Assembly (NCBI GenBank): GCA_965237835.1
Contig: OZ250160.1
Span: forward strand, 128,503 to 192,502
Reading direction: 5' to 3'
Length of the DNA: 64,000 nucleotides
Source of the DNA: Candidatus Poribacteria bacterium
GTDB lineage: Bacteria; Poribacteria; WGA-4E; WGA-3G
The translations under genes and the position numbers were made by a program. This document shows positions 7,819-34,079 of the stretch, piece by piece (position 1 is the stretch's first letter; every line of letters starts with the position of its first letter). The notes under the pieces are model-generated. The model did not search any database, was not told the origin of the DNA, and saw only the letters and a program-made list of their open reading frames with translations.

Positions 7819-7950
7819 TTATTATTTCCCGCATGTTTTCCCGATGATACACTATTTTAGTCGTGTGATAACATGCATAGTGATACGCATGCTTCAGCCT
7901 AATATAATTGGGAAATGCAGACTCCTTTTTTGAATTTACTGGCAGACCTT

Positions 7951-8035
7951 TATACCCAATTAACCCGATTTGTAGTGCGAGATCTCTGGGTCCTCCTCGC
8001 AATCCTGACTTCATCAGAAAACGTCTAATGAGATT
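7951..8035. mobile_element. MITE family A copy, right end degenerate
   Basis: TATACCCAATTAACCCGATTTGTAGTGCGAGATCTCTGGGTCCTCCTCGCAATCCTGAC... The right inverted repeat has decayed. Confidence 0.5.
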
Positions 8036-8333
8036 ATGCGATCCAATAGAGAACAACAGCAGTGACTACCAATATTATCTCTACTACATTTGTTATTATT
8101 TTACCATTCCCATTTAGATAACGTGATAACCATTCAGTGACACTAATAAAACACCAAAGCGAACCAGATATTAGAAGTATTATACCTGTCCGGTGTCCTG
8201 GATGATCTTGCAGAAATGTATAACCCTTTGCAATAATTGATATCCCAAGAAACGGATATACGAAAAGACTTGCCCATTTCAACCATTTTGCATTTCGTAA
8301 GTAGGTACTAATCGAGACAAACATAACTCTCAA
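8034..8333 (-). CDS. Small integral membrane protein, hypothetical
   Basis: 99 aa with three hydrophobic segments and no recognisable motif. Confidence 0.4.
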   Translation of the reverse strand: MRVMFVSISTYLRNAKWLKWASLFVYPFLGISIIAKGYTFLQDHPGHRTGIILLISGSLWCFISVTEWLSRYLNGNGKIITNVVEIILVVTAVVLYWIA

Positions 8334-8338
8334 TCCTC

Positions 8339-10027
8339 TTAATTCTTCAGGTGAGAAGCGATAAACGGTGCAAATTTCCCTAATACCTCAAGCGGTGACT
8401 CTTTATCTGAAAGTGATATTTCTAACATTGCCTCATTTTTCTTGACTGTAATCCAAGCAAGTAGCGGAGAAATTTCATCTGACATGACAACATCATTTTC
8501 TATCTGCATTGAACTATCAATCAATTCCAACAACTTTACAATGTTTAGTTTAACAACTGCAAGCGGGGTTTTGGGTAACTGTTTTAAATATGACAACTTC
8601 TTTTTATTTTCAAATCCATCAACCATAGAATACATCTGGTCTTCAGAAAAACTTAATAGAGATAGACCATCTCTTTCGGCATAGTAAATATTTGATGTGA
8701 ACATAGATATATTTGTACCTTTATAATCCATCTTAGAAACAGAGGTATTCTGTAGGTTGGAAAGACTATTCTCTATCTGATCCCATTTTGATGGGGCTGA
8801 AGAATTGAATATCAAACCGCCGTGTGTGTGTACGTTTGATGCATCTATACTAAAGGTATTATCTAATTCAATATCAAGATTTTCCAAACCATTCGGATCA
8901 AATTGGGTTAAATCACCTACAGACAGTGCGATTTCACCTGTCAATCCAGCGATAACATCCTCCTCAAAATTGAGATTTGATAGTCCTTCAAGATATGAAA
9001 TAAACGTATATGCTTCATCCGTATCGGAATTTTGAATTGCTTCACGGGCAAGTTCCCACATAGTTTCTGAAATACCTGGTGCAAAAGCGATAAACAATTC
9101 TTCCTCACCAGATATTCCTCTTAGTGTTGCCAGTTCTTTCCCCTCTTTCAGGTGGCGACTAACTTGACTCTCAGGAAAATTCGGATCAAATTTTGTGAAA
9201 AGCTGAAACATCGGACCTGTTTCTAATAAATTGAGTCCAGCACCAACCTTCGAAAAAGCTTCAAGTTGTATCCGAACATCTGCGTCCATATCTTCAACAA
9301 AAGGAATGATCCTTCGGAGATCAAGATATAGTGACACTTGTGCTGAACCAATATTTTTTGAAACTGCCGTATATGATTCGTTCTTAAGGATTGATTCGGA
9401 TTTCTTCCGATAAGTATCAATCAACTTCTCAAAACTGTTTTTTCCAATGCCAACGACCAGAAAATCGCCGACAAAACCATAAGTTAAAAGGACATCTGGC
9501 ATTTGGAGCGTGTTGTATTTTACCTTCCTATGTTCACCCGCATCAAGTGTTAATCTACCTCCTGACATTCCCATGAAACCTGTAAGGATTTTAATTAATC
9601 GTTGCATCTCAGCGAGATTGCCCCCGGAATGCACAACAAAGCCTCCATGTGGGTCACCTACTTCTCTTTGCCACATTGCCAACCCAGTTTGGTATCCCAC
9701 TGTGTCAATTACACTGAATAGGTCAGTTCCGATTATATTTTGTACAGCCATTATTCCTTGCTGCATTTCCTCCAATTCTGATCCATCAATTAGTAACTCA
9801 AAGGCTTTCTCCCAATCTTTTGATATATTAATTTCATTATAAATTTCGTCAATATCATTAAGTTGGGCATAGAGGATACTTTCCTTCGGAATAAAGTTAG
9901 TCACCTTTGCTGCGTGTACGGAAATAGGTATCCCGACAATTAATAGAGTGAAAAAGATTATCTTAGGTATGTTAGACCAAGTCAGTGATGAGGAACTGTG
10001 GTTTTGAACAAAGGACTTGAATTTCAT
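8339..10027 (-). CDS. Secreted/anchored hypothetical protein (possibly DUF3352-like)
   Basis: 562 aa with an N-terminal hydrophobic anchor IIFFTLLIVGIPISVHA and no catalytic motif recognised. Confidence 0.45.
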   Translation of the reverse strand: MKFKSFVQNHSSSSLTWSNIPKIIFFTLLIVGIPISVHAAKVTNFIPKESILYAQLNDIDEIYNEINISKDWEKAFELLIDGSELEEMQQGIMAVQNIIGTDLFSVIDTVGYQTGLAMWQREVGDPHGGFVVHSGGNLAEMQRLIKILTGFMGMSGGRLTLDAGEHRKVKYNTLQMPDVLLTYGFVGDFLVVGIGKNSFEKLIDTYRKKSESILKNESYTAVSKNIGSAQVSLYLDLRRIIPFVEDMDADVRIQLEAFSKVGAGLNLLETGPMFQLFTKFDPNFPESQVSRHLKEGKELATLRGISGEEELFIAFAPGISETMWELAREAIQNSDTDEAYTFISYLEGLSNLNFEEDVIAGLTGEIALSVGDLTQFDPNGLENLDIELDNTFSIDASNVHTHGGLIFNSSAPSKWDQIENSLSNLQNTSVSKMDYKGTNISMFTSNIYYAERDGLSLLSFSEDQMYSMVDGFENKKKLSYLKQLPKTPLAVVKLNIVKLLELIDSSMQIENDVVMSDEISPLLAWITVKKNEAMLEISLSDKESPLEVLGKFAPFIASHLKN

Positions 10028-13455: not shown

Positions 13456-13602
13456 TTGTCTGAACCAGGATTTCCAGGATTGAAGATTTGTGAATGGCAA
13501 TGTGTCTTTGTAGCGCAAACTAAAAGTTTGTGCTACAGCAGATACGCTTGATGAGAAACAATCCTGAAAATCTCATAATCCTGAAAATCCTGGTTCAGAC
13601 AA
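13456..13602. repeat. Large imperfect palindrome: inverted family-D arms around a REP-like hairpin
   Basis: TTGTCTGAACCAGGATTTCCAGGATT... (13456-) and ...AATCCTGAAAATCCTGGTTCAGACAA (-13602) flank GTAGCGCAAACT-aaa-AGTTTGTGCTAC (13510-13536). Confidence 0.6.
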
Positions 13603-13924
13603 AATAATCCGAGATTCAGACATTAAATCGGGTGCTGCTTCGCTTTACCCACCTACGATACCGTCAAATACCAACAACTTTACACACCCCGGAATAAAGA
13701 AGTACTTGAAAAAATCTAGTTGATTTGATAAGCTGATGTTGTATGAGATGTCCTCCTAATTCTCAATACAAGGAAACTGAAAATTAACCGATTAAATCCC
13801 TAATCTGCAACTCACCTTATTTCGGGCACCAAACTCACGTTATTATACCAAAAGATTCTCCTTCTCTCACACAATACTATTTCTTTCATCAAACTCACGT
13901 CACGCTATAAATAGAGGTTCCTAC

Positions 13925-15775
13925 ATGTCAGATAACAACTCATTCCTAAAATCCGGTATCCGAGACAACCTTCTTCGTGGCACAGTTCGCGATTTTTTAG
14001 AACAGGAAATTAAGAGCGGTTCCGCGCTTTCTGTTGTATCTGCTTACTTCACCATTTATGCTTATGAAAAGATGCAACATTCCCTCAACAAAATAGAGGA
14101 ACTCCGATTCCTATTCGGTGACCCCGATTTTGTCAAACGTATGGATCCGAATAATACAGATAAAAAAGCGTTTGACATAACGGATACAGGCTTAGAACTT
14201 AACCAGCAACTCCGACAGAAACCGATAGCCAAAGCATGTGCCGAATGGATAAAAGAGAAGGTAGAAATCCGCACTACCCGCCAATCAAATCTACTTCACG
14301 GGAAGATGTATCACATCGCCAATAACGGTGTTGATAAAGCTATTCTGGGCAGCTCCAATTTTACCGTGCGCGGACTCGGACTGAGTTCAAATAGCAGCAA
14401 CATTGAACTCAACCTAGAGGTGGATAGCGACCGCGACCGCACTGACCTAAAGACGTGGTTTGACGAAATCTGGAATAACGATAAACTGGTTGAAGATGTC
14501 AAAGAAAAAGTACTGGCAAAACTGAAGCAGATAGGGCAAGATCACCCACCAGAACTCATCTATTACAAAACCCTATACGAACTTTTCCGTGAAGAAATTG
14601 AGACCCGAAAAACAAACGATCAGACCCTTGAGGATATACATCTATACGACATGAAAATTTGGAAGAAACTGTATGAATTCCAAAAAGAGGGTGCGAAAAG
14701 CGTAATCGCTCGGTTATTACGCCATAACGGCTGCATCTTGGCAGACAGTGTTGGATTGGGAAAAACCTACACCGCACTTGCTGTTATCAAGTTCTTTGAA
14801 TTGCGAAACGAACGCGTCCTTGTGCTATGTCCCAAAAAACTCCGCGAAAATTGGGCACTCTATCCCGCACATAATATGCAAGCAGCCAATGATTTCCTTG
14901 ATGATAAATTCGGTTATTCTTTATTATCGCATACCGATCTATCCCGTTATACAGGCGATGCCGATGGTATCAATCTGGAAGGTTTCAAGTGGCAGAATTT
15001 TGACCTGATAGTGATTGATGAATCTCATAACTTCCGAAACGATACCAAGCCCGGTGAGGATAAAGATGGCAATTTTCGACACAGTCGCTATTCACGACTA
15101 TTAGAAGAGGTTATCAAGGAAGGCACTAAAACCAAAGTGCTGATGCTTTCCGCAACACCAGTGAATACTTCACTTACTGACCTCCGCAATCAAATATATC
15201 TCATGACAGAAAAACGCGAGGATGTCTTTAGAAAAAGTTTGGGAGTCAGCAATATCCGCAATTTAATACAACAGGCACAAAAAGCATTCAAGACGTGGGA
15301 AGAAAATGTACCCAAAGATGGCGCAAGAGATAAGACAGAATTATTTAATACTTTAGGCGCAGACTTTTTCCAACTGCTCGGCGGCGTTTCTATTGCCCGT
15401 TCCCGAAGGCATATCATAAAATACTACGCGGAAGAAATTGAACGTATCGGTGAATTCCCCAAAAAACTGAAACCAGAAAATTGCCACCCACGCACCGACC
15501 TGTCCGGTGCACTCTCATACAAAGCACTGGCAGATCAGATAGGCGATTTCGCCCTATCCATCTATAGACCGTCTAGTTATGTGGTGAGTGAAACAGCAAA
15601 ACAACGATTGGCAAATGAGAAACAGAGACTCCGTTTTAATCAGGAGGACCGCGAGAAATTTCTTATCGGCATGATGCAAACCAACTTCCTCAAACGACTG
15701 GAAAGTTCTGCTCACTCCCTCTCCGAAACACTTGAACGCACTATCAACAAACATGATGAAATGCTGGAGAAGATT
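13925..15775 (+). pseudogene. PLD-nuclease/SNF2-helicase restriction-type subunit, 5' fragment (617 codons), interrupted by an IS
   Basis: HKD motif LHGKMYHIANNGVDKAILGSSNFT. SNF2 motifs LADSVGLGKTYTALA, DLIVIDESHNFRN and LMLSATPVNT. The frame is broken after ...HDEMLEKI by the IS end at 15776. Confidence 0.85.
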
Positions 15776-17244
15776 GGGTGTGTAAAGTTTTTGTACAAAT
15801 AATTATGCAGCTTTTGTGTTTGGATACCAATATCTGTCCCAATCTTTATTCTTCAATAAACACCGCCAACCAAGCACAGCATTGATGCCCGGTTTCTCCC
15901 ATCTCATAGAAGCTTGTTTACATCTTTGCCCGACGACATGTTTACAGGCACTCTCAATCACACCACTTCCGATCTGATACCCCTTTTCTCTAAACGCTTT
16001 ATACTGCATACGCGGCGCATGTTTTTCAAAATAACCTGCTTCTCTTTCTAAACTTTCCCTGACTTCCGGATTTTGTGTGCATAAGGCATAGATGCGGGCG
16101 ACCACTTCTGTGATGTTGCCAGCGTAGAGGTGCGGTTCCATCTCATTTATCCACGCACCGATAACTTCTGTTTCAGTCTCTCCGAAGGCGTGTTTGGCAA
16201 CACCATAGAGATGAGATTTGGCGTGCATGTAATCCACAATCTCAACAGCATTAGGGAAGTATTCATCGGCTAATTTCCAAATCCACGCCGCACCATCCCC
16301 GATAAAGACAACTTCCTGCGTCGCTATATCCTCTTGATAGATACCACTGTGCGTTGCTAACGCAAATAACTCCTTACCAAAATGTTCCGCATTATTACCG
16401 CTCGCAACATACCGGATACTTGGCACTCTGGCACTCGGTGTCGTCTCAGAACCACATTGTGGATAATCTCTGTAAACACACCCAACTTTCACTTCAGTCC
16501 ACCCGTTTGGTGAGTTCGTATAACACCCATCACAACTCACATACCACCGCTGATTTTCCTCAAGATTTTGGGTTTCTACTTGTTCTGGCACGCTCAAATC
16601 TTCTGACCACTCACGCACTTTTTGATGGAGCGTCGTGTGGCTTACTTCTATCCCCTGACGAGACAACTCCTCAGCCGCTTCCCTAAAGTCAAGACACGCT
16701 GCCAGACGACACATCGCTTCTGCGACACGATGTGTGTATTGATCCCGCAACTTTTGTCCGGTTTCCCACGGCACATGGTTATGACCCGATGCACAACGAT
16801 ACACCCAACGCTCTACACAGATCACACCACATACCGTCGTAATACGCCGCGCCCTTTTACACCACGGACGGCACACTTGTTCACACTCAGGACATTCAAC
16901 AGGTTCACAAGCAGACTTACCTGCCATTTGAGAGATAAACATCTCTAAAAACTTTTGACCCCACGAACGAGATGTCTCAAATACACGAAACTCGGCTTCT
17001 TCTAACGGTATACACGGATCGGAAAACATCTCTCTCGCAAAATCGTTGAATTCTTCTACAAACTTCTTAAATACTTCTTCAAACTCTTTGACTTCACAAC
17101 TTGCTAATGATATACTAAACATCGGTATCCTCTCCTATTTTGTTCATAGTTTATGTTCATAGTTTATTAGGAAAGGATACCATTTTTTGGTAAAACTATA
17201 AACATCTTTCCAATTCATAACTTGTACAAAAACTTTACACACCC
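15776..17244 (-). mobile_element. Intact IS element, 1469 bp (ISKra4/ISLre2-like)
   Basis: Perfect 23-bp terminal inverted repeats GGGTGTGTAAAGTTTTTGTACAA (15776-15798) and TTGTACAAAAACTTTACACACCC (17222-17244). Perfect 9-bp direct repeat GAGAAGATT at 15767-15775 and 17245-17253. Confidence 0.9.
15803..17122 (-). CDS. DDE transposase with an N-terminal zinc ribbon
   Basis: 439 aa with CPECEQVCRPW...C, YVSCDGCY, FIGDGAAWIWKL and DYMHAKSHL blocks. Family assignment is tentative. Confidence 0.75.
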   Translation of the reverse strand: MFSISLASCEVKEFEEVFKKFVEEFNDFAREMFSDPCIPLEEAEFRVFETSRSWGQKFLEMFISQMAGKSACEPVECPECEQVCRPWCKRARRITTVCGVICVERWVYRCASGHNHVPWETGQKLRDQYTHRVAEAMCRLAACLDFREAAEELSRQGIEVSHTTLHQKVREWSEDLSVPEQVETQNLEENQRWYVSCDGCYTNSPNGWTEVKVGCVYRDYPQCGSETTPSARVPSIRYVASGNNAEHFGKELFALATHSGIYQEDIATQEVVFIGDGAAWIWKLADEYFPNAVEIVDYMHAKSHLYGVAKHAFGETETEVIGAWINEMEPHLYAGNITEVVARIYALCTQNPEVRESLEREAGYFEKHAPRMQYKAFREKGYQIGSGVIESACKHVVGQRCKQASMRWEKPGINAVLGWRCLLKNKDWDRYWYPNTKAA

Positions 17245-17253
17245 GAGAAGATT

Positions 17254-18690
17254 GAGCGGTTTGAGAAAAACATCAATATATTGGACGTAGAAGCAAATGT
17301 CCTCCCCGATGACGATGAAGACGATGAGGAATTTTTGGTCAATCGTGCCAAAAATCCGTATCATCTGAAGGAATTAGATTGCACCCGTTGGAAGCAAGAC
17401 CTCATCAAAGATAAACAAACCCTAACGGCAGCGTGGGAAAAAGTCAAATCCATCACCCCTGAGAAAGATGGAAAACTCAAAGAGATCAAGAAGCATATTC
17501 GGGACAAGGTGCAAAATTCCACCGCCGATAAAGATGGAAAACCTAACCGCAAACTGTTAGTCTTCACTACCTTCAAAGATACGGCAGTTTACCTTTATGA
17601 TAACTTGTCTGAACTTGCATCGGAATTAGAGTTGAACATGGCGTTGGTTTCTGGAGAGATAACCCGAACAACCTGCGGACAAAATAACTTCAACGCTATA
17701 CTAACGAACTTTGCACCGCGCGCAAGAGGTCGAACTGATGAAACAAGCGACAACATTGATCTAATCATTGCTACCGATTGCATCTCTGAAGGACAAAATC
17801 TGCAGGATTGTGACACAGTCCTCAATTATGATATACACTGGAATCCCGTGCGTATCATTCAACGTTTTGGGCGCATAGACAGGATCGGTAGCAAGAATAA
17901 AGAAGTGAAAATGATAAACTATTGGCCCACTGAAGATATGGAAGTGTATCTGCGTCTACAAACTCGGGTCGCATCGCGCATGGCACTTGCAGATGCAACC
18001 GCAAGCGGTGATGACGACCCGCTAAACGATTTCACTTATGAACAGGCGGAGATGGAACTCAATTTCCGTGACGCACAGTTGGAGCAGCTACGTAAGGAAG
18101 TGCTTGATCTCGACGATCTCTCTGAGGGTGTTGTGTTGAGTGATTTTACGCTCGATTACTTCTTTACACAACTACTGAAATATCTTGAAAAAAATCGTGC
18201 GGAATTGGATGCAACACCTGATGGTGCCTACGCTGTCACGGATTACGAAAATAATCCGAAGGAAAACGGTGTCATCTTCTTCCTACAACAACGTAACGCC
18301 AGCACAGATAAACAGCAGAAATCTGCCAGTCCCATCTATCCATATTATATCGTCTACATCCGCAATAATGGTGACATCCGATACGGGTGTGCAAACGCTA
18401 AACAGGTGTTAGATCTGTTTGAGGCATCGGCTGTCGGAAAGACCGAACCTATTCAGAACTTGTGCCTACAGTTTGACAGAGAAACCGAACACGGTGATAA
18501 TATGGCACATTATAACAAACTATTGGACACGGTGATTACGCATATCACACGGTCGCATACGAAAACACAGAGCCAAATTCTGAGGAGAGGTAGTCCACGC
18601 GATTCTAAACTTACCCCAGCATCCAAAGTACCTAAAGATACTGGTGATTTTAAATTGGTGACGTGGTTGATTATTACGTCTGATGCCTAA
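17254..18690 (+). pseudogene. PLD-SNF2 helicase, 3' fragment (helicase C-terminal domain plus tail)
   Basis: In frame with 13925-15775 once the IS and one target-duplication copy are removed (...LEKI|ERFEKNINILDVEANV...). Motifs LLVFTTFKDTA and ATDCISEGQNLQDCDTVLNYDIHWNPVRIIQRFGRIDRIGS. The reconstructed ORF is 1095 aa. Confidence 0.85.
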
Positions 18691-22608: not shown

Positions 22609-23526
22609 GTGATGGAAATGATTAACAGATTTCGTGGAGAAGCAGGTCGTAATCGCCTTATTTGGGCGTTACGCAAACAGGCTATTCTGCATGACGACGA
22701 AACATTATCCAATGAACTAGCTGACCAAGCCGAACTTCTTCAGTTTGAGTCCGGGGATGAACTAATCATACAGCATGATGCTGACAATGACATCTATTTT
22801 ATTTTAGCTGGGCAACTTTCTATCGTTGTTAATGGACGAGAAGTAGCTATCAGGAAACCTGGAGAACATGTCGGTGAAATGGTGTTAATTGATCCATCTG
22901 CAAGACGTTCAGCGTCGGTTATTGCTATTGAGCAAACGGTTGTTGTCAAAATTTGTGAAACCTCTTTCCGTTTGTTAGCAGAAAAATATCCAAGAATCTG
23001 GCAGCTAATTGCAGTAGAACTTGCCGATAGGTTGCGGCAAAGAAATAGGTTAGTTGCTGCTACAAACCCACGTCCTGTTGTGTTCATAGGTTCCTCAAAG
23101 GAATCACTTCCTATTGCAGAGACGATTAAATCTAATTTAGATGGTAAAGATATCATCGTTCACTTATGGACAGAAGGTGTTTTTGGTGCTTCGCAATTTA
23201 CATTAACCGAACTTGAGAAACAGGTTCAAGAAGCTGACTTTGCAGTACTTGTTCTGGGACCTGACGATGAAGTGATAAGTCGTGACGAAAAATCGGATGC
23301 GCCTCGTGATAATGTAATCTTTGAGTTAGGTCTATTTATGGGAGCATTATCACATGAACGAACCTTTATGGTTATTCCTCACGGGTGTGATATTAAGATT
23401 CCCACTGATTTGCTTGGCCTTATTCCCTTGAAGTATAAATCAGGTGATTCTAACGACTATGCCGATTTGCTGATACCAGTTTGTGATCAACTTCGGCATA
23501 ACATTAAAAAGGTCAACGTTAAATAA
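22609..23526 (+). CDS. pycTIR: Pycsar-type effector: cyclic-nucleotide-binding domain fused to a TIR-like (Cap12/PF10137-type) domain
   Basis: cNMP-binding signature GEHVGEMVLID...RRSASVIA. The TIR-like part is VVFIGSSKESLPIAE...ADFAVLVLGPDDEV...PRDNVIFELGLFMGAL...IPTDLLGL. The start is GTG 22609 or ATG 22612. Confidence 0.75.
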   Translation: MMEMINRFRGEAGRNRLIWALRKQAILHDDETLSNELADQAELLQFESGDELIIQHDADNDIYFILAGQLSIVVNGREVAIRKPGEHVGEMVLIDPSARRSASVIAIEQTVVVKICETSFRLLAEKYPRIWQLIAVELADRLRQRNRLVAATNPRPVVFIGSSKESLPIAETIKSNLDGKDIIVHLWTEGVFGASQFTLTELEKQVQEADFAVLVLGPDDEVISRDEKSDAPRDNVIFELGLFMGALSHERTFMVIPHGCDIKIPTDLLGLIPLKYKSGDSNDYADLLIPVCDQLRHNIKKVNVK

Positions 23527-23550
23527 TTTCATATTAGGAGGATTATTCCA

Positions 23551-24243
23551 ATGAGTTTAGGTGAAGATTTTGCAAAAGAAGTTCGAAAAATATTTCAGGA
23601 AACATGGGCTACCCGGAAAGGCAGAAAAGTCCCAGAACCGGGAGATATAGCATTAGGTAATGATGCTGTGGAGTTAGACGGGACGGTGCTATATGCAGAC
23701 CTTGATGATTCTACAAATCTTGTAGATTCTCATCAACCAAAATTTGCGGCTAAAATATATAAAGCATATCTCAGCTGCGCTGCTAAGGTGATACGGTCTG
23801 AGGGTGGTGTTATCACCTCTTACGATGGCGATCGTATCATGGCGGTATTCATCGGAGACTTAAAAAACACCTCCGCCGCTCGTTCAGCATTAAAAATAAA
23901 CTATACAGTTACCAAAATTATAAATCCTGTTCTAAAAAAGTATTCTCCCAAAACGAATTACAAAGTCAAGCAAGTTGTGGGTATTGACACCAGCAAATTA
24001 TTTGTCGCACGCACTGGAATACGAAATTCGAACGACCTCGTTTGGGTTGGACGTGCTGCGAACTACGCAGCGAAATTGTGTTCTCTTTCACCCAATTACC
24101 CTTCACGACTGACCAAAGGCGTGTACGATAAATTGGATGACTCAGTTAAGTATGCGAATAATGATAAAAGAACGCCTATGTGGAATAAGGCCACATGGAA
24201 TGATATGACGATTTATAGATCAACTTGGCGATGGCCAATATAG
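23551..24243 (+). CDS. pycC: Small class III nucleotidyl cyclase (Pycsar PycC-like)
   Basis: 230 aa with metal-binding VLYADLDDST, GDRIMAVF and VWVGRAANYAAKL. It has a TAGGAGG RBS and starts 24 nt after the effector gene. Confidence 0.7.
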   Translation: MSLGEDFAKEVRKIFQETWATRKGRKVPEPGDIALGNDAVELDGTVLYADLDDSTNLVDSHQPKFAAKIYKAYLSCAAKVIRSEGGVITSYDGDRIMAVFIGDLKNTSAARSALKINYTVTKIINPVLKKYSPKTNYKVKQVVGIDTSKLFVARTGIRNSNDLVWVGRAANYAAKLCSLSPNYPSRLTKGVYDKLDDSVKYANNDKRTPMWNKATWNDMTIYRSTWRWPI

Positions 24244-24443
24244 GAGCGCATAAAATATCATTGACTTATTGGAATGATTGAAAATGGTCTGAATAGCAAA
24301 TAATAGGTAATGTAGATTTTCAATTGAGAAGTCTATGTAATCCCCGATTCAGATAATAAAGAGATTGCGAATATGATGTATCTTATCAGTTTGATACAGA
24401 GCGAGCCATAATGTGAATGCCGTGCTTTTGATATTGCCGTTCC

Positions 24444-24502
24444 TAATCCTGAAAATCCGATAATCCTGAAAATCCTGGTTCAGACAATCCGCGATTCAGA
24501 CA
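24444..24502. repeat. Family-D repeat copy (junction 1)
   Basis: CCTAATCCTGAAAATCCGATAATCCTGAAAATCCTGGTTCAGACAATCCGCGATTCAGACA. Confidence 0.6.
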
Positions 24503-24522
24503 AAAGAAACCGTCATTATAGA

Positions 24523-24660
24523 GAACAAATCCTGAACACACAAACGCAACCCCTTGCCCAAAATGCGTAAACCGATGCAAAGGTTTTTCCTTGAAAATCA
24601 GATTGATAGTATGGTATACTGCTGATACAAATTAACCTTGAAGAAATTCAAGTGTGGGGA
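24523..24660 (+). pseudogene. Degenerate remnant of a methyltransferase 3' end (ghost 1)
   Basis: 24590-24654 reads LENQIDSMVYC*YKLTLKKF, against LENEIDQLVYALYDLTPEEI at the end of 18877-22458. That is 10 of 21 positions by eye, with an in-frame stop. Confidence 0.45.
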
Positions 24661-24745
24661 AAGCACAGAATAAATTTCTGAATCGTGGATTAGATAAAGT
24701 GCTCAGATTTTTGGATTGTGTCATCCGTGAAAAGGAGTGCCAAAA

Positions 24746-25951
24746 ATGCAAAAATACGACGTTGCGTTGTCATTTGCTGCGGAAGACCGTCAGTATGCCA
24801 AAACGTTAGCAAATCTTCTCAAAGCAGATGGATATGAACCCTTTTACGATGAAAATGAGTTAGCAAATCTATGGGGGAAGAATCTATATGACTACTTGTC
24901 GTCGGTTTATAAAGATCAAGCTCGCTATTGTGTGATGTTCCTTTCTAAACACTACGAACGAAAACTATGGACGACCCATGAACGCCAACTTGCGCAAGCA
25001 AGGGCATTTCAGGAAAACCGTGAGTATATTCTCCCAGTTCGTCTCGACGATACAGAAATTCCGGGTATTCCTCCCACGGTCGGATATCTTGATTTACGTT
25101 CAATGACTATTGAAGAAGTCTATGAGGCTTTAGTAAAGAAGTTATCGGGCACCACATTGCAAACAAACACTGATTTCACGAACGCCGCCGTAGTTGAGGA
25201 AGATTCTACCGAGTATGTGCTATTAAATTCTGAAGATGGGAAACTGTATTTCTTTCCGGTTCAAAACGCGCGTTGGGATTCAACAGAAATTTCACTTGAG
25301 CTGCTGCCAGAATCGCCAGAAGATACAGCTTTTCTTCGTTCATTAAGAAGTCATATCAGTGAGGTATTTGCAAGAGATATCTTCATTGCACTTGCGCTTG
25401 GAGAAGATGCTGCGTGGGTAACCCCAAAGGAAGTCGTTCAAACGGCGTCCGGTTCACAAATCGTTTGGAAAGTCGTTCTGAACGTAGAAAGACACAGAAA
25501 AAATGGAAACCCCCTTGGCGAAATAACGTTTGGTAGTTTTTCACCGGATAAGATTGCTGAAATGCGGGCAAAGCGGATCCTACTTAATGAGAAATTAGGC
25601 GAACTTCCACAGGATTTCCAGAACCAAACAGGGCCCGCGGGTTTGTTCAACGAAGTTTCATTGGAAGTGTTTGTTCGTGGCAGCAACGGATTTCAAATCT
25701 CTGCATCAACCATCCCGTTCCTATACCGCTCTATTGGACGAACAGTTGGACGTTTTGAGAAATTCGCACGTTTAATCTCGGTACTTCACCTTAAACTCTC
25801 AAATACAGTTGAAGAGATACTCAAATTAGATTTGAAACTTCTGAATCCTGAACAGGTAGAGATCAAATTCAAAGGGCGTAGGTCCAAGCGGTACGTTAAC
25901 GTTGAACCGTCTATTATTGAATTTGATGGAATCTGCCCACTAACTGAGTGA
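24746..25951 (+). CDS. TIR-domain protein with an uncharacterised C-terminal domain of about 260 aa
   Basis: MQKYDVALSFAAEDRQYAKTLANLLKADGYEPFYDENE...YCVMFLSKHYERKLWTTHERQ...ILPVRLDD is a bacterial TIR. I prefer ATG 24746 (AAGGAG 7 nt upstream) over the track's GTG at 24737. Confidence 0.75.
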   Translation: MQKYDVALSFAAEDRQYAKTLANLLKADGYEPFYDENELANLWGKNLYDYLSSVYKDQARYCVMFLSKHYERKLWTTHERQLAQARAFQENREYILPVRLDDTEIPGIPPTVGYLDLRSMTIEEVYEALVKKLSGTTLQTNTDFTNAAVVEEDSTEYVLLNSEDGKLYFFPVQNARWDSTEISLELLPESPEDTAFLRSLRSHISEVFARDIFIALALGEDAAWVTPKEVVQTASGSQIVWKVVLNVERHRKNGNPLGEITFGSFSPDKIAEMRAKRILLNEKLGELPQDFQNQTGPAGLFNEVSLEVFVRGSNGFQISASTIPFLYRSIGRTVGRFEKFARLISVLHLKLSNTVEEILKLDLKLLNPEQVEIKFKGRRSKRYVNVEPSIIEFDGICPLTE

Positions 25952-26091
25952 TTATATCCTTCATACATAGCAACAGAAAGCGACGTTGTTTTAGAGAGAC
26001 TTCTATCTAACCAACGTAATCAGTTTTATCCTTAATTGAAACAACACCCACTTCACTTGGATTAATTATCATTTTGGAAAATAAAGCAGTC

Positions 26092-27327
26092 ATGAGTGTT
26101 GAGACCCTAAGCGAGTTTATAGAATGGGCGGCAAAATTTAGCGATGGACAATACCTATTTCGTGGGGTTTCAACAGAAAGTTACAAAATAGAGGCATCTG
26201 CTTACCGTCGCTTGCCTGAAACCGACACAAATAATACGAGTAAGCTGCTTAAAATCAATCAAGAGTTGATAGAAAAAGCAAGAGGACTTGGACACGATCA
26301 GAAAGACGGTCAACAGTTATCCGATCTGGAACTACTTGCAGAACTTCAGCATTTTGGTGCAGCCACCTGCCTAATAGATTTTTCACGGAGTGCGTTGGTA
26401 GCATTGTGGTTTGCTTGCCAGCAAGGCTCCAAAGTAGAAGCAAACGGCAAAGTTTTCGCTGTCCGTCATGACGATATGGTCCGCCTAAAGACAGTTAATC
26501 CAAAATTGATCAAAAAAGAGATTGATTATTTTTTCAAACCGGATGAAAATGGTAGATTTCCGCTATATCAATGGCAACCGAAACTTCAGAACAACCGTAT
26601 CATAGCTCAACAATCTGTTTTCGTATTCAGTGGTGCCTCAATTGAAGCAGAGGATGAATGTGTCATTAAGAGAAACAGCAAGCAAGACATCCTAATATCT
26701 CTGGATAATATATCAGGTATCAACGAAGCTAATATTTATCCTGATTTTGACGGGTTTGCTCGATTACATGCCTACAACAAAACATACGTTGAACCGGATG
26801 CTCAAGACTATCTGCAACGTGGAATTGAAGCTCAACAAAATGGCAACCTTGATGATGCTATTGAGTACTACACTGAAGTCATACGGTTGGATCCGGCAGA
26901 CACTTCCACAATTTCAGTGGCTCGTTACAGTCGTGGCGTCGCTTACATCGAAAAGGGAGAGGCAGACCTCGCCATTGAGGATTATAACATCGTAATTCAA
27001 TACGATCCAAATTATGCTCATGCATATAACAGTCGAGGTTATGCGTACAGGAGAAAAGGAGATAATGAGCATGCTGTTAAAGACTATGACGAAGCAATAC
27101 AGATTAATCCGAATAATGTTCTGTTTTATAACAATCGCAGCATAGCACTATTACAGCAGCAAGAGTGGGAAAGGGCAAAATCAGACTTGACAACTGCCAA
27201 GAACATGGGAGTAGATATCATAACGTTATTTCGTAACTCATATTCAAGCATTGCCGACTTTGAGCAGAAACATAATGTGAAACTACCACCAGACATCACC
27301 GCAATGCTAACACCCCCACGGGCATAG
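26092..27327 (+). CDS. FRG-domain / TPR-repeat fusion protein
   Basis: FRG-domain motifs: YLFRGVS, LAELQHFGAATCLIDFSRSALVALWFAC and NRIIAQQSVFVF. The C-terminal half has about 4 TPR units (AIEYYTEVIRLDP, AIEDYNIVIQYDPNYAHAYNSRG...). The start is either ATG 26092 or TTG 26074. Confidence 0.7.
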   Translation: MSVETLSEFIEWAAKFSDGQYLFRGVSTESYKIEASAYRRLPETDTNNTSKLLKINQELIEKARGLGHDQKDGQQLSDLELLAELQHFGAATCLIDFSRSALVALWFACQQGSKVEANGKVFAVRHDDMVRLKTVNPKLIKKEIDYFFKPDENGRFPLYQWQPKLQNNRIIAQQSVFVFSGASIEAEDECVIKRNSKQDILISLDNISGINEANIYPDFDGFARLHAYNKTYVEPDAQDYLQRGIEAQQNGNLDDAIEYYTEVIRLDPADTSTISVARYSRGVAYIEKGEADLAIEDYNIVIQYDPNYAHAYNSRGYAYRRKGDNEHAVKDYDEAIQINPNNVLFYNNRSIALLQQQEWERAKSDLTTAKNMGVDIITLFRNSYSSIADFEQKHNVKLPPDITAMLTPPRA

Positions 27328-27378
27328 CAGTTGAACAGAAAACCCTCCGCTTAGCTGATGACGCTGAGGTGCGATTTC

Positions 27379-27424
27379 CAATCCGCGTCATCTAAGTAAT
27401 CCGTGCAAATCCGAGATTCAGACA
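27379..27424. repeat. Family-D repeat copy (junction 2)
   Basis: CAATCCGCGTCATCTAAGTAATCCGTGCAAATCCGAGATTCAGACA. Confidence 0.55.
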
Positions 27425-27569
27425 ACAAATTCTGAACACACAACACAAACCTTTGTCCTAAACATACAGCCAGATACCGAAGTTTTCACTTGAAAATGAA
27501 ATTGATCGTTTGGTATACTCATTGTACAACATAAACCCCGAAAAAATTGCAATTATGGAAACGGAATGA
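27425..27569 (+). pseudogene. Remnant of a methyltransferase 3' end (ghost 2, best preserved)
   Basis: 27489-27569 is an open 26-codon frame plus stop, LENEIDRLVYSLYNINPEKIAIMETE*. It matches 17 of 25 positions of LENEIDQLVYALYDLTPEEIAIVEG. Its TGA overlaps the ATG of the next gene (ATGA at 27566-27569). Confidence 0.7.
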
Positions 27570-28309
27570 ATACACCAAACGACTCGGAGGCTCAAAAGAG
27601 TCTAAGCGAGGTATTTGAAAAAATCCAAGAAATAGCGGCAAACTCAGCGTATGGCGACTTCATTTATCGCGGTGAGCCTGAACATTTTGAAGGAGAACCA
27701 TACTATGGAAAGGTTTCTTCAAGTCTTTGGCGTAAGTGTCGGAAAGAAATTGGATCGGAGGAATTTGAGGTAGAAGTCATCCAAGATCAGATATTGAAAA
27801 TAGCTAAAGACTATACTCACGAAGAAGACGAGTTTGAGATTTTGACAGAACTTCAACATTACGAGGGGCATACCAATCTTATAGATTTTACAACTGATTG
27901 CCACATAGCCCTGTTTTTCGCATGTGACGGTTCCCTTGGAAAACCCGGCAGGATTATCTTATTAGAAGGAACTGAAGAGATAAAAGATTATATCAAACCA
28001 CCTCGGAATCCTCAAAATCGCATCATAGCGCAAAAAAGTATATTCGTTCGGCCTCCGAAAGGCTTTATCGAACCAGAACAGTTCGCAGAAGTCAACATTC
28101 CCGAATTGCTCAAGGGACCGATGTTGGATCATCTGCAAAAACAGCACGGTATCTCAACTCAAACAGTCTACAACGATCTCCATGGGTATATTAGAAACCA
28201 GGACACCCACCTGAAGGAAGGCATAGAAGTTTACAATGACGAAATGCAGCAGGGGGAAGATGACTTTCAGCTTGAATCGTCTCAACTCAGTAAGGAAAAG
28301 GAGACATAA
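27566..28309 (+). CDS. FRG-domain protein (stand-alone)
   Basis: 247 aa with FIYRGEP, LTELQHYEGHTNLIDFTTDCHIALFFAC and NRIIAQKSIFV. Confidence 0.7.
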   Translation: MNTPNDSEAQKSLSEVFEKIQEIAANSAYGDFIYRGEPEHFEGEPYYGKVSSSLWRKCRKEIGSEEFEVEVIQDQILKIAKDYTHEEDEFEILTELQHYEGHTNLIDFTTDCHIALFFACDGSLGKPGRIILLEGTEEIKDYIKPPRNPQNRIIAQKSIFVRPPKGFIEPEQFAEVNIPELLKGPMLDHLQKQHGISTQTVYNDLHGYIRNQDTHLKEGIEVYNDEMQQGEDDFQLESSQLSKEKET

Positions 28310-28312
28310 AAC

Positions 28313-29116
28313 ATGCAGACACAACCAGAACAGACACCTTACGATATCACCATTGAACGCTTTACCAAAGCAATTGATCGGAGACCCACTTTTGCCCAAG
28401 GTTATAACTATCGAGGTCTCGCTTATGGTAATAAAGGCGAAATTGACCGTGCAATAGAAGACTTTAACACGGCAATTAGACGTAAGGAAAACTATGCCGA
28501 AGCATACAGTAATCGCGGGGCAGCTTACCGCATAAAAGGTGACTATGATCGCGCATTTGAAGATTGTAACATCGCGATAAGACTTGACCCAAATTTGCCA
28601 GAAGCATATAACAATCGAGGGATAGTTTATAAACTCAAAGGTGAGATAGAATTGGCTATTCAAAACTATGACACAGCAATAAAACTTGATCCAAGTTTTG
28701 CTTATGCCTATAATAATCGTGGTATTATTTACTATGAAAGAGAAGATTATGATCTCGCAATCATAGATTATACCAAAGCAATAGAACTGAGACCGGACCT
28801 TGTCCGTCCCTATAACAATCGTGGTAATGTTTACAGTAAAAAAGGCGAGTATGAACGTGCCATCAGAGACTATGACGCGGCGATAGAACGTAACACCGAT
28901 TTAGCAGAGCCATACTACAATCGCGGTATGGCATTTATACGCTTGCAAAAATGGGAAAAAGCCAAAGAAGATTTGACAACTGCCAAAGACAAGCAGGAAA
29001 ATATCATCATTGAACAGTTTCGCAAAGACTATGAAAACATTGCCGACTTTGAACAGAAACATAGTGTTAAACTGCCAGAAGACATCGCCGCAATGCTAAC
29101 TCCCTTGCAGGCATAG
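28313..29116 (+). CDS. TPR-repeat protein (stand-alone partner of 27566-28309)
   Basis: 267 aa with about 6 tandem TPR units (AIEDFNTAIRRKENYAEAYSNRG...). It starts 3 nt after the FRG gene. The last ~45 aa are nearly the same as the C-terminus of 26092-27327. Confidence 0.75.
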   Translation: MQTQPEQTPYDITIERFTKAIDRRPTFAQGYNYRGLAYGNKGEIDRAIEDFNTAIRRKENYAEAYSNRGAAYRIKGDYDRAFEDCNIAIRLDPNLPEAYNNRGIVYKLKGEIELAIQNYDTAIKLDPSFAYAYNNRGIIYYEREDYDLAIIDYTKAIELRPDLVRPYNNRGNVYSKKGEYERAIRDYDAAIERNTDLAEPYYNRGMAFIRLQKWEKAKEDLTTAKDKQENIIIEQFRKDYENIADFEQKHSVKLPEDIAAMLTPLQA

Positions 29117-29167
29117 CAGTAAAACAAGAAACTGTCTTCTCATCAGATTACCTGATACTATAGATTT

Positions 29168-29205
29168 TCAATCCGCGTCATCCGCAATAATCCGCGATTC
29201 AGACA
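29168..29205. repeat. Family-D repeat copy (junction 3)
   Basis: TCAATCCGCGTCATCCGCAATAATCCGCGATTCAGACA. The following AAAGAAACCGCCATTGTAGAACACAAATCCTGA is nearly identical to junction 1. Confidence 0.55.
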
Positions 29206-29226
29206 AAAGAAACCGCCATTGTAGAA

Positions 29227-29375
29227 CACAAATCCTGAGCATACAAATCCAGTGTGCCAAACGCGTACCCCCATACCAACGTTCCAACGCCCCTAAAAAT
29301 GATATTGACAAATTCACCTATAAAGTGTACAGTTTAACAAGCGAACATTCAGAATTGCAAAACGTGGTGAAGGAG
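29227..29375 (+). pseudogene. Degenerate remnant of a methyltransferase 3' end (ghost 3)
   Basis: 29293-29375 reads LKNDIDKFTYKVYSLTSEHSELQNVVKE, against LENEIDQLVYALYDLTPEEIAIVE. That is 9 of 19 positions by eye, collinear and ungapped. Confidence 0.45.
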
Positions 29376-29384
29376 GACATATCC

Positions 29385-29786
29385 ATGAATGGCACCGAAA
29401 AAGTAATAAAGCACTTGGAAATGACACAAAATGTTATTAACCGTTTGGGGCGAAACAGTTTCTTGCTAAAAAGTTGGAGCATGACAATTCTTGTTGCAGC
29501 AATGGTTTTAATCGCCAAAGAAGATTTGCAAAATTCATATTTTGTCTTAGTCCTTTTCCTTCCTATTGCAGGATTTTGGATTTTGGATGGTTACTTTCTC
29601 TGGCAGGAACGGTTGTTCCGAAAGGTCTATGATGAGATCAGAGAGCAAACCGACACCAATTTCAAGATGGATCTCGGTAAGCACAAACCGAAATGTAGTT
29701 GGATATCTGCTATTTTTTCGATCACGCTAAATATTTTTTATTTTATAGAGGTACTGTTTGTGTTCGCAATTGGTTATTTTTCTTAG
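29385..29786 (+). CDS. Small 3-TM membrane protein, hypothetical
   Basis: ATG 29385 follows GAAGGAGGA. 133 aa with three hydrophobic helices. The track ORF from 29325 is an in-frame extension through ghost 3. Confidence 0.5.
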   Translation: MNGTEKVIKHLEMTQNVINRLGRNSFLLKSWSMTILVAAMVLIAKEDLQNSYFVLVLFLPIAGFWILDGYFLWQERLFRKVYDEIREQTDTNFKMDLGKHKPKCSWISAIFSITLNIFYFIEVLFVFAIGYFS

Positions 29787-31203: not shown

Positions 31204-32478
31204 ATGGCAATGGATTATTATATCAGTCTATTTGGTGACGATTCAAACTCAGGTATTTCCCAAAAGCAACCGTGGCAAAGTATTGACAGCGTAAATGCTA
31301 TCCGATTACAACCTGGAGATTCCGTGTGGTTTCACGCAAATCAAACCTTCAAGGGAAATCTCACGCTTTCTGATACAGATACAGATGCCTCAGACAAACC
31401 GATAACGTTCAGTTCATACGGAGATGGTAGAGCAACGATTGATGCTAGCATCGGTCATGGTTTCTTCATCCAAAATCGTGGAGGTGTGCAGATAACTAAT
31501 CTCAACTTCGTTGGCACAGGAGCAGATCAGAATACCAGTTCAGGGATATGGTTCGTCAATACACTGCCGGAACACAAAAAACTGACGCATATACGCATTG
31601 ATAAGGTTAACGTTAGCGGTTTTAAACATGCTGGAATTTGCATCGCCGCGCAGCCAATTGATGGTGGATGGTGTGGGTTCAGCGATGTGAAAATAACACA
31701 CGCCAACGTCCATGATAACGGAGATGCAGGAATAAATTGTTTTGGCGCGTGGAATCCAGAGGACGAGGAATATGCACATGCTAACATCTATGTCGGCAAC
31801 TGCCGTGCATATAGAAACGCAGGCATTCCCGGCAAAGAAAGCCATTCGGGGAACGGTATTATCCTTGCACAAGTAGATGGTGCCACAATTGAGCATTGTG
31901 AGACTTATGAAAACGGGAGGTTGAACGATCACGAAGGCGGTGGTCCCGTTGGTATCTGGACGTGGGATTCAAATCGTGTTGTCATTCAGTTCAATGAATC
32001 ACATCACAACCGAACAGGAAGCAGTAAAGATGGTGGAGGGTTTGATTTAGATGGCGGTGTACGGAACGCAATTGTGCAGTATAATTATTCGCACGATAAC
32101 GATGGAGCAGGTTATCTGTTAGCGCAATTTGAAGGCGCAAAAGCATTTCATGGTAACGTTATCCGCTATAATCTCAGTGAGAATGATGGACGAAGAAACA
32201 GTTTTGGTGGTATTCACCTCTGGTCTACTGGTGCGAATGGCGGTATCAGAAACACAACTATCTATCAGAATACAGTCTTAACGTCCAAATCTGCCACTGG
32301 TAATCCTGCTGCAGTTGACTGTCCGAGTGATGGAATTAGCAACATCCGCTTCTACAATAATACCTTTAAAACCGATGGCGACGCAGTGCTAATTCGGGGA
32401 GAAGATAATCCAGAGGTCATTTTTGAAGGCAACGTTTGCTTGATTGATGACGAGGATTTTGATAAGGAGAAAAAATGA
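31204..32478 (+). CDS. Right-handed parallel beta-helix repeat protein
   Basis: 424 aa with repetitive N/G-rich turns (HDNGDAGIN, ENGRLNDHEGGGP, HDNDGAGY) typical of pectate-lyase-fold proteins. Confidence 0.6.
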   Translation: MAMDYYISLFGDDSNSGISQKQPWQSIDSVNAIRLQPGDSVWFHANQTFKGNLTLSDTDTDASDKPITFSSYGDGRATIDASIGHGFFIQNRGGVQITNLNFVGTGADQNTSSGIWFVNTLPEHKKLTHIRIDKVNVSGFKHAGICIAAQPIDGGWCGFSDVKITHANVHDNGDAGINCFGAWNPEDEEYAHANIYVGNCRAYRNAGIPGKESHSGNGIILAQVDGATIEHCETYENGRLNDHEGGGPVGIWTWDSNRVVIQFNESHHNRTGSSKDGGGFDLDGGVRNAIVQYNYSHDNDGAGYLLAQFEGAKAFHGNVIRYNLSENDGRRNSFGGIHLWSTGANGGIRNTTIYQNTVLTSKSATGNPAAVDCPSDGISNIRFYNNTFKTDGDAVLIRGEDNPEVIFEGNVCLIDDEDFDKEKK

Positions 32479-34079
32479 GGCGTTTTGGAACTCAAGGTCG
32501 CGTGTATCCTGACCGACACTATGTTGTACCACGCACCGAAGAAATTGCTGACTTCATCACCCGTGTCAAAGACGGTCGCTATATCGTACTCTTTGCACCG
32601 CGCCAAACCGGCAAGACCACCTTCTTCCGATTGGCACTTGATACCCTTGCCGCCGAAGATCCAACCTATTTCCCTATTCAATTGAATTTTGAGGAATATG
32701 AAGACTGTACTCTTTCGGAATTTTATGACTCCCTTAAGAAAGAAATTTGCAAAGAAATTGAACGCGTGTTCCTAAAACACGGAGAAGTCCTCTCTGATAC
32801 GCTTAACGACTTCTTAGAAACTGCAGAGATTACCAACCATCTGTCAATGAGGGAATTTTTTGAGCAACTGATGAGTTTTCTGTGCTTTCCGATGAATTGT
32901 CAGAAGATTGTCCTAATTATTGACGAGTTTGACGCTATTCCTCAGGCAGCCGTTCGTGGTTTTCTGCATTCGCTTCGTTATATCTATCTCTCTGACGCAT
33001 TGCGATGCCCACATAGTGTTGGCATCGTCGGCGTAAAAAGCATCGCCCAACTCAACTATGATCGTTCTATTTCGCCATTTAATATCCAAGATGAGTTTCG
33101 GTTGCCTAACTTTACGTTAAAACAAGTGCAGGAACTACTATCGCAATATACAGACGAAGTAGGTCAAGACTTCGCACCAGAGGTGATCGCATCTATCCAT
33201 AAGCAGACTGCAGGTCAACCTGTGCTTGTGAACCGTTTCGCGCAAATTCTGACTGAGGAGATGGATATTCCCAAAACCGAAACCATTACCCCTATACATT
33301 TTTCAACGGCACATACGCAGCTCCTTCGAGGACGAAACACTAATATCCAGCATCTAACAACTAATATCCGTAGAGACCCGCGCTTTGAAAGTATGTTGAT
33401 GAGAATCATGGCGCGTGAGGAAGGCGTGGACTTCAATCTGGATGATGAAGTCATCAGTGAACTCGCTACGTACGGTGTTATCCGAGAAGCCCCTGACGGT
33501 ATGTGTGAGATTGTTAATCCAATTTATCTCTACCGTATCATGAGGACTTTCAAACCGACAATAAATGGATTAGAAGACGATTATTTCTCTGAAGATGCCG
33601 ATACATGTTTTTTGGATTACCTCACATCTACAGGACAGATTGATATGGTCCCCATACTTGATAACTTTCGTGACTTTATCGCTCGCGTCGGTTTCCGTAT
33701 CTTGCAAGTTACAGATACACCGCAGGAGTATATTGGACAGCATCTACTATATGCCTATCTTGAGCAGTTTGTCCGCAGCGTGGGTGGGAATATTTACCTT
33801 GAAGTGCAAACGGGGCGAGGCAGAATGGATCTCCTCCTCATCCACAACCAGCGAAAATACATCGTTGAAACCAAGATTTGGGAAGGAAACAGTCGCTATG
33901 TAGCGGGAAAAAAGCAGCTTGCAGTGTATATGGAATTGGAAGGAACTGTGGAAGGCTACTATGTTGTATTTGATCATCGCCACAGTCCAGAACCGCGAGT
34001 AGAGACTGAGACAGTGGATGGTGTGACAATTCGGAGTTATGTTATTCCTGTGATGCAAGCACGGCCTTCATCAGTTTAG
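32475..34079 (+). CDS. AAA-ATPase-like protein with a C-terminal PD-(D/E)XK nuclease domain
   Basis: Walker A FAPRQTGKTT and Walker B LIIDEFD. The C-terminal GRMDLLLIHNQRKYIVETKIW gives D...E-x-K. It overlaps the upstream gene in ATGA. Confidence 0.65.
   Translation: MRRFGTQGRVYPDRHYVVPRTEEIADFITRVKDGRYIVLFAPRQTGKTTFFRLALDTLAAEDPTYFPIQLNFEEYEDCTLSEFYDSLKKEICKEIERVFLKHGEVLSDTLNDFLETAEITNHLSMREFFEQLMSFLCFPMNCQKIVLIIDEFDAIPQAAVRGFLHSLRYIYLSDALRCPHSVGIVGVKSIAQLNYDRSISPFNIQDEFRLPNFTLKQVQELLSQYTDEVGQDFAPEVIASIHKQTAGQPVLVNRFAQILTEEMDIPKTETITPIHFSTAHTQLLRGRNTNIQHLTTNIRRDPRFESMLMRIMAREEGVDFNLDDEVISELATYGVIREAPDGMCEIVNPIYLYRIMRTFKPTINGLEDDYFSEDADTCFLDYLTSTGQIDMVPILDNFRDFIARVGFRILQVTDTPQEYIGQHLLYAYLEQFVRSVGGNIYLEVQTGRGRMDLLLIHNQRKYIVETKIWEGNSRYVAGKKQLAVYMELEGTVEGYYVVFDHRHSPEPRVETETVDGVTIRSYVIPVMQARPSSV

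Follow-up and report, generated by a model that had tools for sequence, protein, structure and literature searches.

Fused and split FRG-tetratricopeptide repeat modules in a defence island of Candidatus Poribacteria: a candidate family of anti-phage proteins with interchangeable heads

On the genome of a member of Candidatus Poribacteria, a sponge symbiont (GenBank assembly GCA_965237835.1), the same pair of protein domains is encoded twice in succession. Gene A encodes an FRG domain and tetratricopeptide repeats (TPRs) as one polypeptide, while the genes directly following it encode an FRG domain (gene B) and TPRs (gene C) separately. This raises the question of whether the two domains form a working unit and, if so, of what kind. 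The locus was examined within a stretch of 64,000 nt (contig OZ250160.1, positions 128,503 to 192,502, forward strand), referred to here as the window and forming part of a genome contig of 5.9 Mb; positions below are those of the window, with gene coordinates collected in Table 1. An original prediction, made from the letters of the DNA, had proposed the pair as a candidate undescribed defence system. The analysis suggests that the two modules of the locus are paralogues and belong to a Poribacteria-wide family of conflict proteins, which are most likely anti-phage, of the abortive-infection type and independent of a nucleoside triphosphatase (NTPase).

Fused and split forms of the FRG and TPR pair

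Gene A (read as 26092-27327, 411 aa) was found to match the Pfam FRG family (PF08867) over residues 20-114 with 60.6 bits (cutoff 25), followed by TPRs. Gene B (247 aa) matched the same family with 45.0 bits, and gene C (267 aa) was found to contain six TPR_1 repeats and no FRG domain according to Pfam. The FRG call therefore held under a hidden Markov model search, both scores being above the 25-bit gathering threshold, and the positions of the open reading frames (ORFs), as well as the description of A as fused, B as FRG only and C as TPR only, were confirmed exactly. None of the three proteins matched an NTPase family in Pfam. The start of A is probably a TTG codon at 26074 (417 aa), with the ATG at 26092 as the alternative, because an N-terminus of MEN(E)K and its TTG/GTG codon are kept in orthologues, more than 100 of which were found in Poribacteria (55-95% identity). 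The stop codon of B and the ATG of C are 3 nt apart, as originally noted, with an AAGGAG ribosome-binding site located within the end of B; the two genes are probably translationally coupled.

Comparison of the two modules showed the FRG parts of A and B to be 27% identical over 230 aa (E=2e-15), whereas identity between the TPR part of A and C was 46% (173 aa, E=5e-44). A conserved tail closes both TPR parts, as had been claimed, though its description as almost the same in the two proteins was overstated, with identity being 62% over 61 aa and approximately 80% over the last 25 aa. The FRG motifs that had been pointed out (xxRG, ELQH, LIDF and NRIIAQxS) were invariant in 51-53 homologues, and all 53 members of the FRG alignment matched Pfam FRG.

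The ORFs of 41 related loci (L001 onwards) were mapped against the window proteins. A B-type FRG gene was found to be followed within a few nt on its 3’ side by a TPR-tail gene in the window and in L008, L009, L014, L016, L019, L020 and L037-L041, and to be fused to a TPR-tail in L005/L007 (725 aa), L036 and many representative proteins. The A-type FRG is usually fused, but a split form was found in L011, from a Latescibacterota genome, and a frameshifted one in L010 (at 7917-9234). In all loci examined, each FRG head was either fused to a TPR-tail or followed by one. Furthermore, the four-gene order TIR400-A-B-C, in which TIR400 encodes a TIR protein of ~400 aa upstream of A, was also identified in L009 and L041, with a third FRG and TPR pair interposed in this order in L039/L040. 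As fusion, fission and gene order recur across loci, the fused-plus-split arrangement is conserved and not a one-off. The original argument that the two domains work together is thereby strengthened, fusion and fission recurring in many genomes and for both FRG subtypes, and a functional link between FRG and TPR is supported.

Only one related locus was found in IMG/VR, indicating that FRG-TPR modules are not typically phage-borne. In this locus (L036, 5842-7839, IMGVR_UViG_2740892559_000001), on a contig of 78.7 kb predicted to be viral, FRG_B and a TPR-tail are fused in one gene, whose ORF runs approximately 150 aa past the tail. Broken TPR-tail genes are frequent: a gene for a TIR-TPR-tail protein, of 673 aa in L002, is broken into three ORFs in L003 (6125-8423) and L004 (3722-8423), and more than 100 public ORFs of 50-107 aa (proteins P0121-P0240) consist of little beyond the tail. 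This may reflect either rapid decay or errors in the assembly of repeat DNA.

TIR400 was found directly upstream of an A-type gene in ten of ten independent contexts (the window, L002-4, L005/7, L006, L008, L009, L010, L039, L040 and L041, the last found by a search with TIR400 itself), with a gap of approximately 50-140 nt. No promoter-like site was identified on the + strand between TIR400 and A. The outer flanks vary between these contexts, consisting of metabolic genes, ion channels, restriction-modification genes or Pycsar. TIR400 is thus part of module 1 as the operon partner of A, and not a separate member of the island; this constant linkage was missed by the original prediction and is new here. 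Among PDB sequences TIR400 resembled bacterial TIR proteins (7uxr, 1.9e-5), including the NAD(+) hydrolase AbTIR (8g83, 1.6e-3), and it keeps a W-x-x-x-E motif (WTTHE), which we take to be the motif of the catalytic Glu. From this resemblance TIR400 is a putative TIR that cleaves nicotinamide adenine dinucleotide (NAD). Its C-terminal domain of approximately 270 aa had no match in Pfam, PHROG or PDB, and the best PADLOC match of the protein was PDC-S66 (6e-15), with a marginal match to the ThsB1 model (1e-3).

Interchangeable heads and the predicted activity of FRG

A profile of the tail (the last 60 residues) was used in an exhaustive search of 1.84e9 representatives, and matched 603 clusters, 362 of them at E<=1e-10, nearly always at the extreme C-terminus. 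(A word-indexed homologue search with the same profile was dropped as an architecture census, as it gave only fragments of <=107 aa.) The heads carried on the TPR-tail scaffold were FRG_A, FRG_B, at least three TIR_2 sequence types including that of TIR400, and a BrnT RNase toxin, with other proteins having an unassigned head or none. The census contained two FRG head types, with a third FRG type seen in the related loci; approximately 25 of the tail-bearing representative clusters were FRG_B-TPR-tail fusions and approximately 8 were FRG_A fusions. In L002, several such genes stand in a row: an FRG and TPR pair, the 673-aa TIR-TPR-tail fusion, TIR400, FRG_A-TPR and a gene for a small membrane protein. 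The family is near-confined to Poribacteria of sponge metagenomes, where it is much expanded.

The shared tail thus marks a large Poribacteria-wide family, with TIR and BrnT heads, that the original prediction had missed. The identifiable heads are all effector or toxin domains, and NAD+ would be used by two of the three kinds. This swapping of heads on a constant scaffold supports FRG being an effector, as originally modelled, and an NAD-directed enzyme. Because one kind of tail accompanies different heads, its partner is expected to be not the head but an element that all members have in common, for instance the TPR groove or a common factor. Replacement of TIR by FRG fits with the published prediction in which Frg was classed by the Aravind group as a possible NADase and antiviral effector of the ADP-ribosyltransferase (ART) superfamily, placed alongside RES in an ART clade that belongs to prokaryotic immune systems (PMC9503650). 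The same classification, also as a prediction, appears in a survey of Legionella ARTs (PMC12522546).

The FRG heads of A and B matched 13-14 models of the PADLOC candidate PDC-S15, the best match of A having an E-value of 5.9e-34 (residues 3-224 on positions 45-264 of 276, 80% of model PDLC04938). The FRG head is therefore already listed as a single-gene candidate, with C having no PADLOC match. The original view that FRG lacks an assigned function and belongs to no named system no longer applies to prediction, given PDC-S15 and the two publications above, but is still true for experiment.

An AF2 model of B (predicted local distance difference test (pLDDT) score 73, core 85-92) showed a folded core with the final ~45 residues disordered. 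When this model was compared to the PDB with Foldseek, seven of the eleven top matches were ART folds (including Arr, cholera toxin A, pertussis toxin S1, pierisin, KptA and PARP13), and PARP and ART-PolyVal proteins were among the matches in BFVD. On the model, the invariant R of the FRG motif (R35) lies on strand 1, the D of LIDF (D107) on the next core strand and Q-x-S (Q156-x-S158) at the start of a later strand, positions which we take to be those of the ART triad; LQH is also invariant, as is the wider R-x-I-x-Q-x-S. The data are thus compatible with an assignment of FRG to the ARTs without proving it, Foldseek being in weak agreement.

The explanation that we favour, at slightly better than even confidence, is that the locus encodes modular, NTPase-free defence proteins in which the TPR-tail regulates an NAD-directed head, with TIR400 acting as co-effector or signal generator for the A-type protein. 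Each module would be built from an effector head, a TPR array and a conserved C-terminal tail of ~45 residues. The head here, FRG, with its predicted ART-like fold, would degrade NAD+ or transfer ADP-ribose. The TPR-tail would keep the head inactive and/or sense a trigger, and infection would cause it to release or assemble the head. Module 1 would be an operon of TIR400 and the fused FRG_A-TPR-tail gene, and module 2 would follow the same design in split form, as the translationally coupled genes of FRG_B and a TPR-tail protein.

A number of observations weigh against this explanation. With regard to the enzyme, none of the structural matches was significant (E>=0.13, TM 0.2-0.33), and for the A-type head AF2 yielded a poor model (pLDDT 61), so that the Foldseek matches of that model, with LT-A first and DarT1 seventh, carry little weight. 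The third triad position is a Ser, with no invariant Glu present there, and not the catalytic Glu of classical ARTs (R-S-E or H-Y-E). A profile of FRG found no matches among PDB sequences (a further profile, A3, found TPR matches only), no recurrent ART-family match was seen in Pfam at E<=10 among 53 FRG proteins, and a literature search returned no experimental paper on FRG or PDC-S15. With regard to defence, the flanks in approximately half of the contexts are ordinary metabolic genes and not known defence genes, and near-confinement to one symbiont lineage leaves room for a host-related role. With regard to sensing, C has a fixed length of 267-279 aa in B/C pairs, unlike a rapidly diversifying sensor, and in seven such pairs the head was not more conserved (65% identity) than the TPR protein (71%).

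This last result differs from that of 62 A-type orthologues, in which the head showed a pairwise identity of 85%, compared with 71% in the TPRs and 70% in the tail. The original idea of the TPRs as sensor agrees with the A-type values but not with the B/C pairs. A role of the TPRs as diversifying sensors was accordingly dropped, as the higher conservation of the head did not replicate; the B/C values indicate that the TPRs are not obviously fast-evolving, and a role as regulator or scaffold is equally possible.

In a bolder form of the favoured explanation, which we put forward tentatively and consider possible at best, the TPR and tail scaffold would define an undescribed NTPase-free immune family of sponge symbionts with interchangeable heads. 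TIR400 and FRG_A-TPR would then form a new two-enzyme NAD-based pathway, having an ART-fold domain downstream of or together with a TIR, and the TPR groove would receive the tail as a pseudo-ligand or assembly peptide.

Given the strict association of TIR400 with A (10/10), the short gap kept between them and the lack of a + strand promoter-like site in that gap, a Thoeris-like pair was also considered, and appears unlikely. TIR400 would sense infection through its C-terminal domain and make an ADP-ribose-derived signal from NAD+, with FRG_A-TPR, and possibly the PDC-M50A-like small membrane protein, as the receiver or effector that the signal activates. The similarity of its TIR domain to AbTIR and other solved bacterial TIRs, with the W-x-x-x-E motif retained, fits such a role, as does the position of PDC-M50A directly after A in L002-L004, its partner PDC-M50B being ThsB-like; an ART-like pocket could moreover bind an ADP-ribose-type ligand. 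However, the match of TIR400 to the ThsB model is marginal, no ThsA-type SLOG or Macro sensor domain was found with Pfam, and TIR heads occupy the effector position on the same scaffold. Furthermore, B/C modules, like many fused FRG-TPR genes, are found without TIR400, showing FRG-TPR to be independent of a TIR.

Near-restriction of this greatly expanded family to sponge Poribacteria would also suit symbiosis factors whose TIR or ART-like heads would target sponge cells, for example their NAD metabolism or TIR signalling, while the tail would direct export or targeting. Sponge symbionts are known for TPR-rich “eukaryote-like” proteins, and a constant tail at the extreme C-terminus of proteins with differing heads resembles a sorting signal. 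This explanation is nonetheless improbable, as all three proteins are without an N-terminal signal peptide, the head in the split form has no tail, and a BrnT toxin is among the heads. In addition, the neighbours are restriction-modification, Pycsar, PD-(D/E)XK and toxin-antitoxin genes in variable cassettes, and FRG is a PADLOC candidate associated with defence islands in other phyla. Least probable is an addiction module of the toxin-antitoxin kind that would stabilise the island with no specific anti-phage sensing, the TPR-tail neutralising a toxic FRG directed at NAD in the manner of RES-Xre. In its favour are the small size and tight coupling of B and C (3-nt gap), the co-variation of their identities, the published grouping of Frg with RES and the DUF433/DUF5615 toxin-antitoxin genes located nearby in relatives. 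Against it stand stable one-polypeptide fusions, which are common and unlike a labile antitoxin, TPR arrays of 4 to >14 repeats, which are atypical for antitoxins, and the lack of a DNA-binding domain.

The surrounding island and its intergenic element

With PADLOC models, a defence island was delimited at approximately 13.6 to 29.8 kb of the window, and no PADLOC match was obtained in the scan of the window for the genes flanking it on either side. Its gene order is HKD-Snf2 helicase, type IIG restriction-modification enzyme, PycTIR, PycC, TIR400, A, B, C and a small membrane protein. The island context described originally (a restriction-modification-like pair, a Pycsar pair and a TIR protein) was thus borne out.

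Table 1. Features of the FRG-TPR locus and of the intergenic element in the window
Feature	Coordinates	Strand	Description and evidence
Intergenic element, upstream of helicase	13540-13930		Shared repeat
Intergenic element, upstream of TIR400	about 24300/24440-24736	+	Promoter-like site 24591-24620
TIR400	24737..25951	+	TIR_2 (residues 1-135) and ~270-aa C-terminal domain; Pfam TIR_2 8e-19
Gene A	26074..27327	+	FRG_A head, ~4 TPRs and C-terminal tail; Pfam FRG 3e-16 and TPR families; PADLOC PDC-S15
Gene A, FRG_A head	~26092-26796
Gene A, TPRs	~26797-27150
Gene A, tail	~27145-27327
Intergenic element, upstream of B	27328-27565	+	Promoter-like site 27490-27519
Gene B	27566..28309	+	Stand-alone FRG_B head; Pfam FRG 2e-11; PDC-S15 5.3e-20; 1575 homologues
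Gene C	28313..29116	+	Six TPRs and tail, split-off partner of B; Pfam; 3-nt gap; ribosome-binding site
Intergenic element, downstream of C and upstream of small membrane gene	29117-29384	+
Small membrane protein	29385..29786	+	PDC-M50A; PADLOC PDC-M50A 5e-36

The Pycsar genes were identified as neighbours and not as part of the module (PADLOC: PycC 4.4e-99; TIR-type Pycsar effector 9.2e-118; PycTIR model 4.7e-104). A Pycsar pair also stands directly upstream of TIR400-A in another Poribacteria genome (L040, 2023-6447, compared with 22609-27327 of the window) but is missing from most other TIR400-A contexts, making the association facultative. Membership of TIR400 in Pycsar was rejected for the same reason, the TIR400-A pair occurring without Pycsar in most genomes.

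The gene for the HKD(PLD)-Snf2 helicase is interrupted in the window by an insertion sequence with a UPF0236-family transposase (13925-15802 and 17281-18690 for the two halves, with 15803-17122 on the - strand between them). The halves match positions 27-535 and 596-922 of a single PADLOC model, PDLC01075, and in L005 an intact 1087-aa helicase gene adjoins the type IIG enzyme. The helicase/restriction-modification system has probably been inactivated in the window.

In L002-L004 the gene of the small membrane protein comes directly after the A-type gene, and in L020 and L022 it lies close to TPR-tail genes. It is an occasional neighbour of the module, and its membership in the system is uncertain. 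In L020 (2335-5706), PDC-M50A is paired with ThsB-like TIR genes (PDC-M50B, 3.6e-42), so that PDC-M50 looks like a Thoeris-like pair; a PDC-M50B partner is absent from the window, and a gene of this type adjoins PDC-M50A only in L020. The DNA 3’ of A and the DNA 3’ of C are homologous, and in L002-L004 the small membrane gene follows straight after A. This homology suggests that the arrangement in the window arose by insertion of a B-C cassette between these two genes.

A shared intergenic element of approximately 200 nt lies ahead of four cassettes of the island, namely those with the helicase, TIR400, FRG_B and the small membrane protein. In the 64-kb window the motif AATCCGCGATTCAGACAA of this element is present six times against 0.05 expected, always inside the island, and it was also found around the same cassettes in 13 related loci, with nine copies in L005. 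TIR400 and B are each preceded by a promoter-like site, the two sites being near-identical (TTGAAA-18-TATACT with TG). The element could be a common operator/promoter or a repeat at cassette junctions. The repeat was identified from ungapped repeats and the motif count, as gapped global DNA identities of the flanks were not separable from those of shuffled controls.

Just beyond the island, a 534-aa protein (32475-34079) with an AAA_35/AAA_16 ATPase domain, a weak C-terminal match to NERD / PD-(D/E)XK and no PADLOC match may be another conflict-related gene. Scans of the window with Rfam and for tRNAs returned nothing, and PHROGs gave only families with no known function. NCBIfam returned only generic TPR families for A and C and a weak TIR match for TIR400, while B and the small membrane protein had no match.

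Comparison with known systems and implications

Among the closest described counterparts of the locus is PDC-S15, whose models are matched by the FRG heads and which is likewise a candidate associated with defence islands. However, PDC-S15 is defined as a single gene, whereas the head here is always found with a TPR and tail, and in the A-type also with TIR400. The heads belong to the same Pfam family as the Frg/ART clade, which is predicted to act as a NADase-like antiviral effector (PMC9503650), and ART folds head their Foldseek matches. They differ from it in the triad (R...D...Q-x-S against R-S-E or H-Y-E) and in having no significant structural or sequence match, with NAD-degrading toxins of the RES type as the nearest characterised relatives.

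The DSR2/DSR1 systems resemble these modules in their logic, placing a head directed at NAD in front of alpha-helical repeats and lacking an NTPase, but have a SIR2 head and large HEAT-like arrays, in contrast to the FRG or TIR head, short canonical TPRs, tail, split form and TIR partner seen here. The placing of a TIR gene beside a putative effector, and the presence of PDC-M50A, recall Thoeris and PDC-M50. Thoeris differs in its ThsA (SIR2-SLOG or TM-Macro), which was not found among A, B, C and the small membrane protein, and TIR400 is only marginally ThsB-like; PDC-M50 differs in its PDC-M50B gene, which the window lacks. Avs/STAND proteins likewise combine a scaffold that contains repeats with exchangeable effector heads, TIR among them, but differ in their NTPase domain, which Pfam did not detect in A, B or C.

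FRG as a PADLOC candidate and as a predicted ART-like effector was thus already known, and the new elements are the obligatory TPR-tail partner, the TIR400 partner, the large head-swap family and the recurring four-gene order. FRG is widespread, and has so far been represented by the PADLOC candidate and the computational prediction of an ART-like domain. The TPR-tail partner, occurring naturally in fused and split forms, is suited to studies of interaction and regulation, and the natural exchange of FRG and TIR heads on one scaffold argues for an action of FRG on NAD+, with the dedicated TIR partner of one FRG subtype as a further testable handle. If the explanation favoured here is true, PDC-S15 would become a mechanistically defined system, and an NTPase-free, repeat-regulated family of NAD-targeting defence proteins would be added to those of bacteria, with a bearing on phage pressure in sponge microbiomes.

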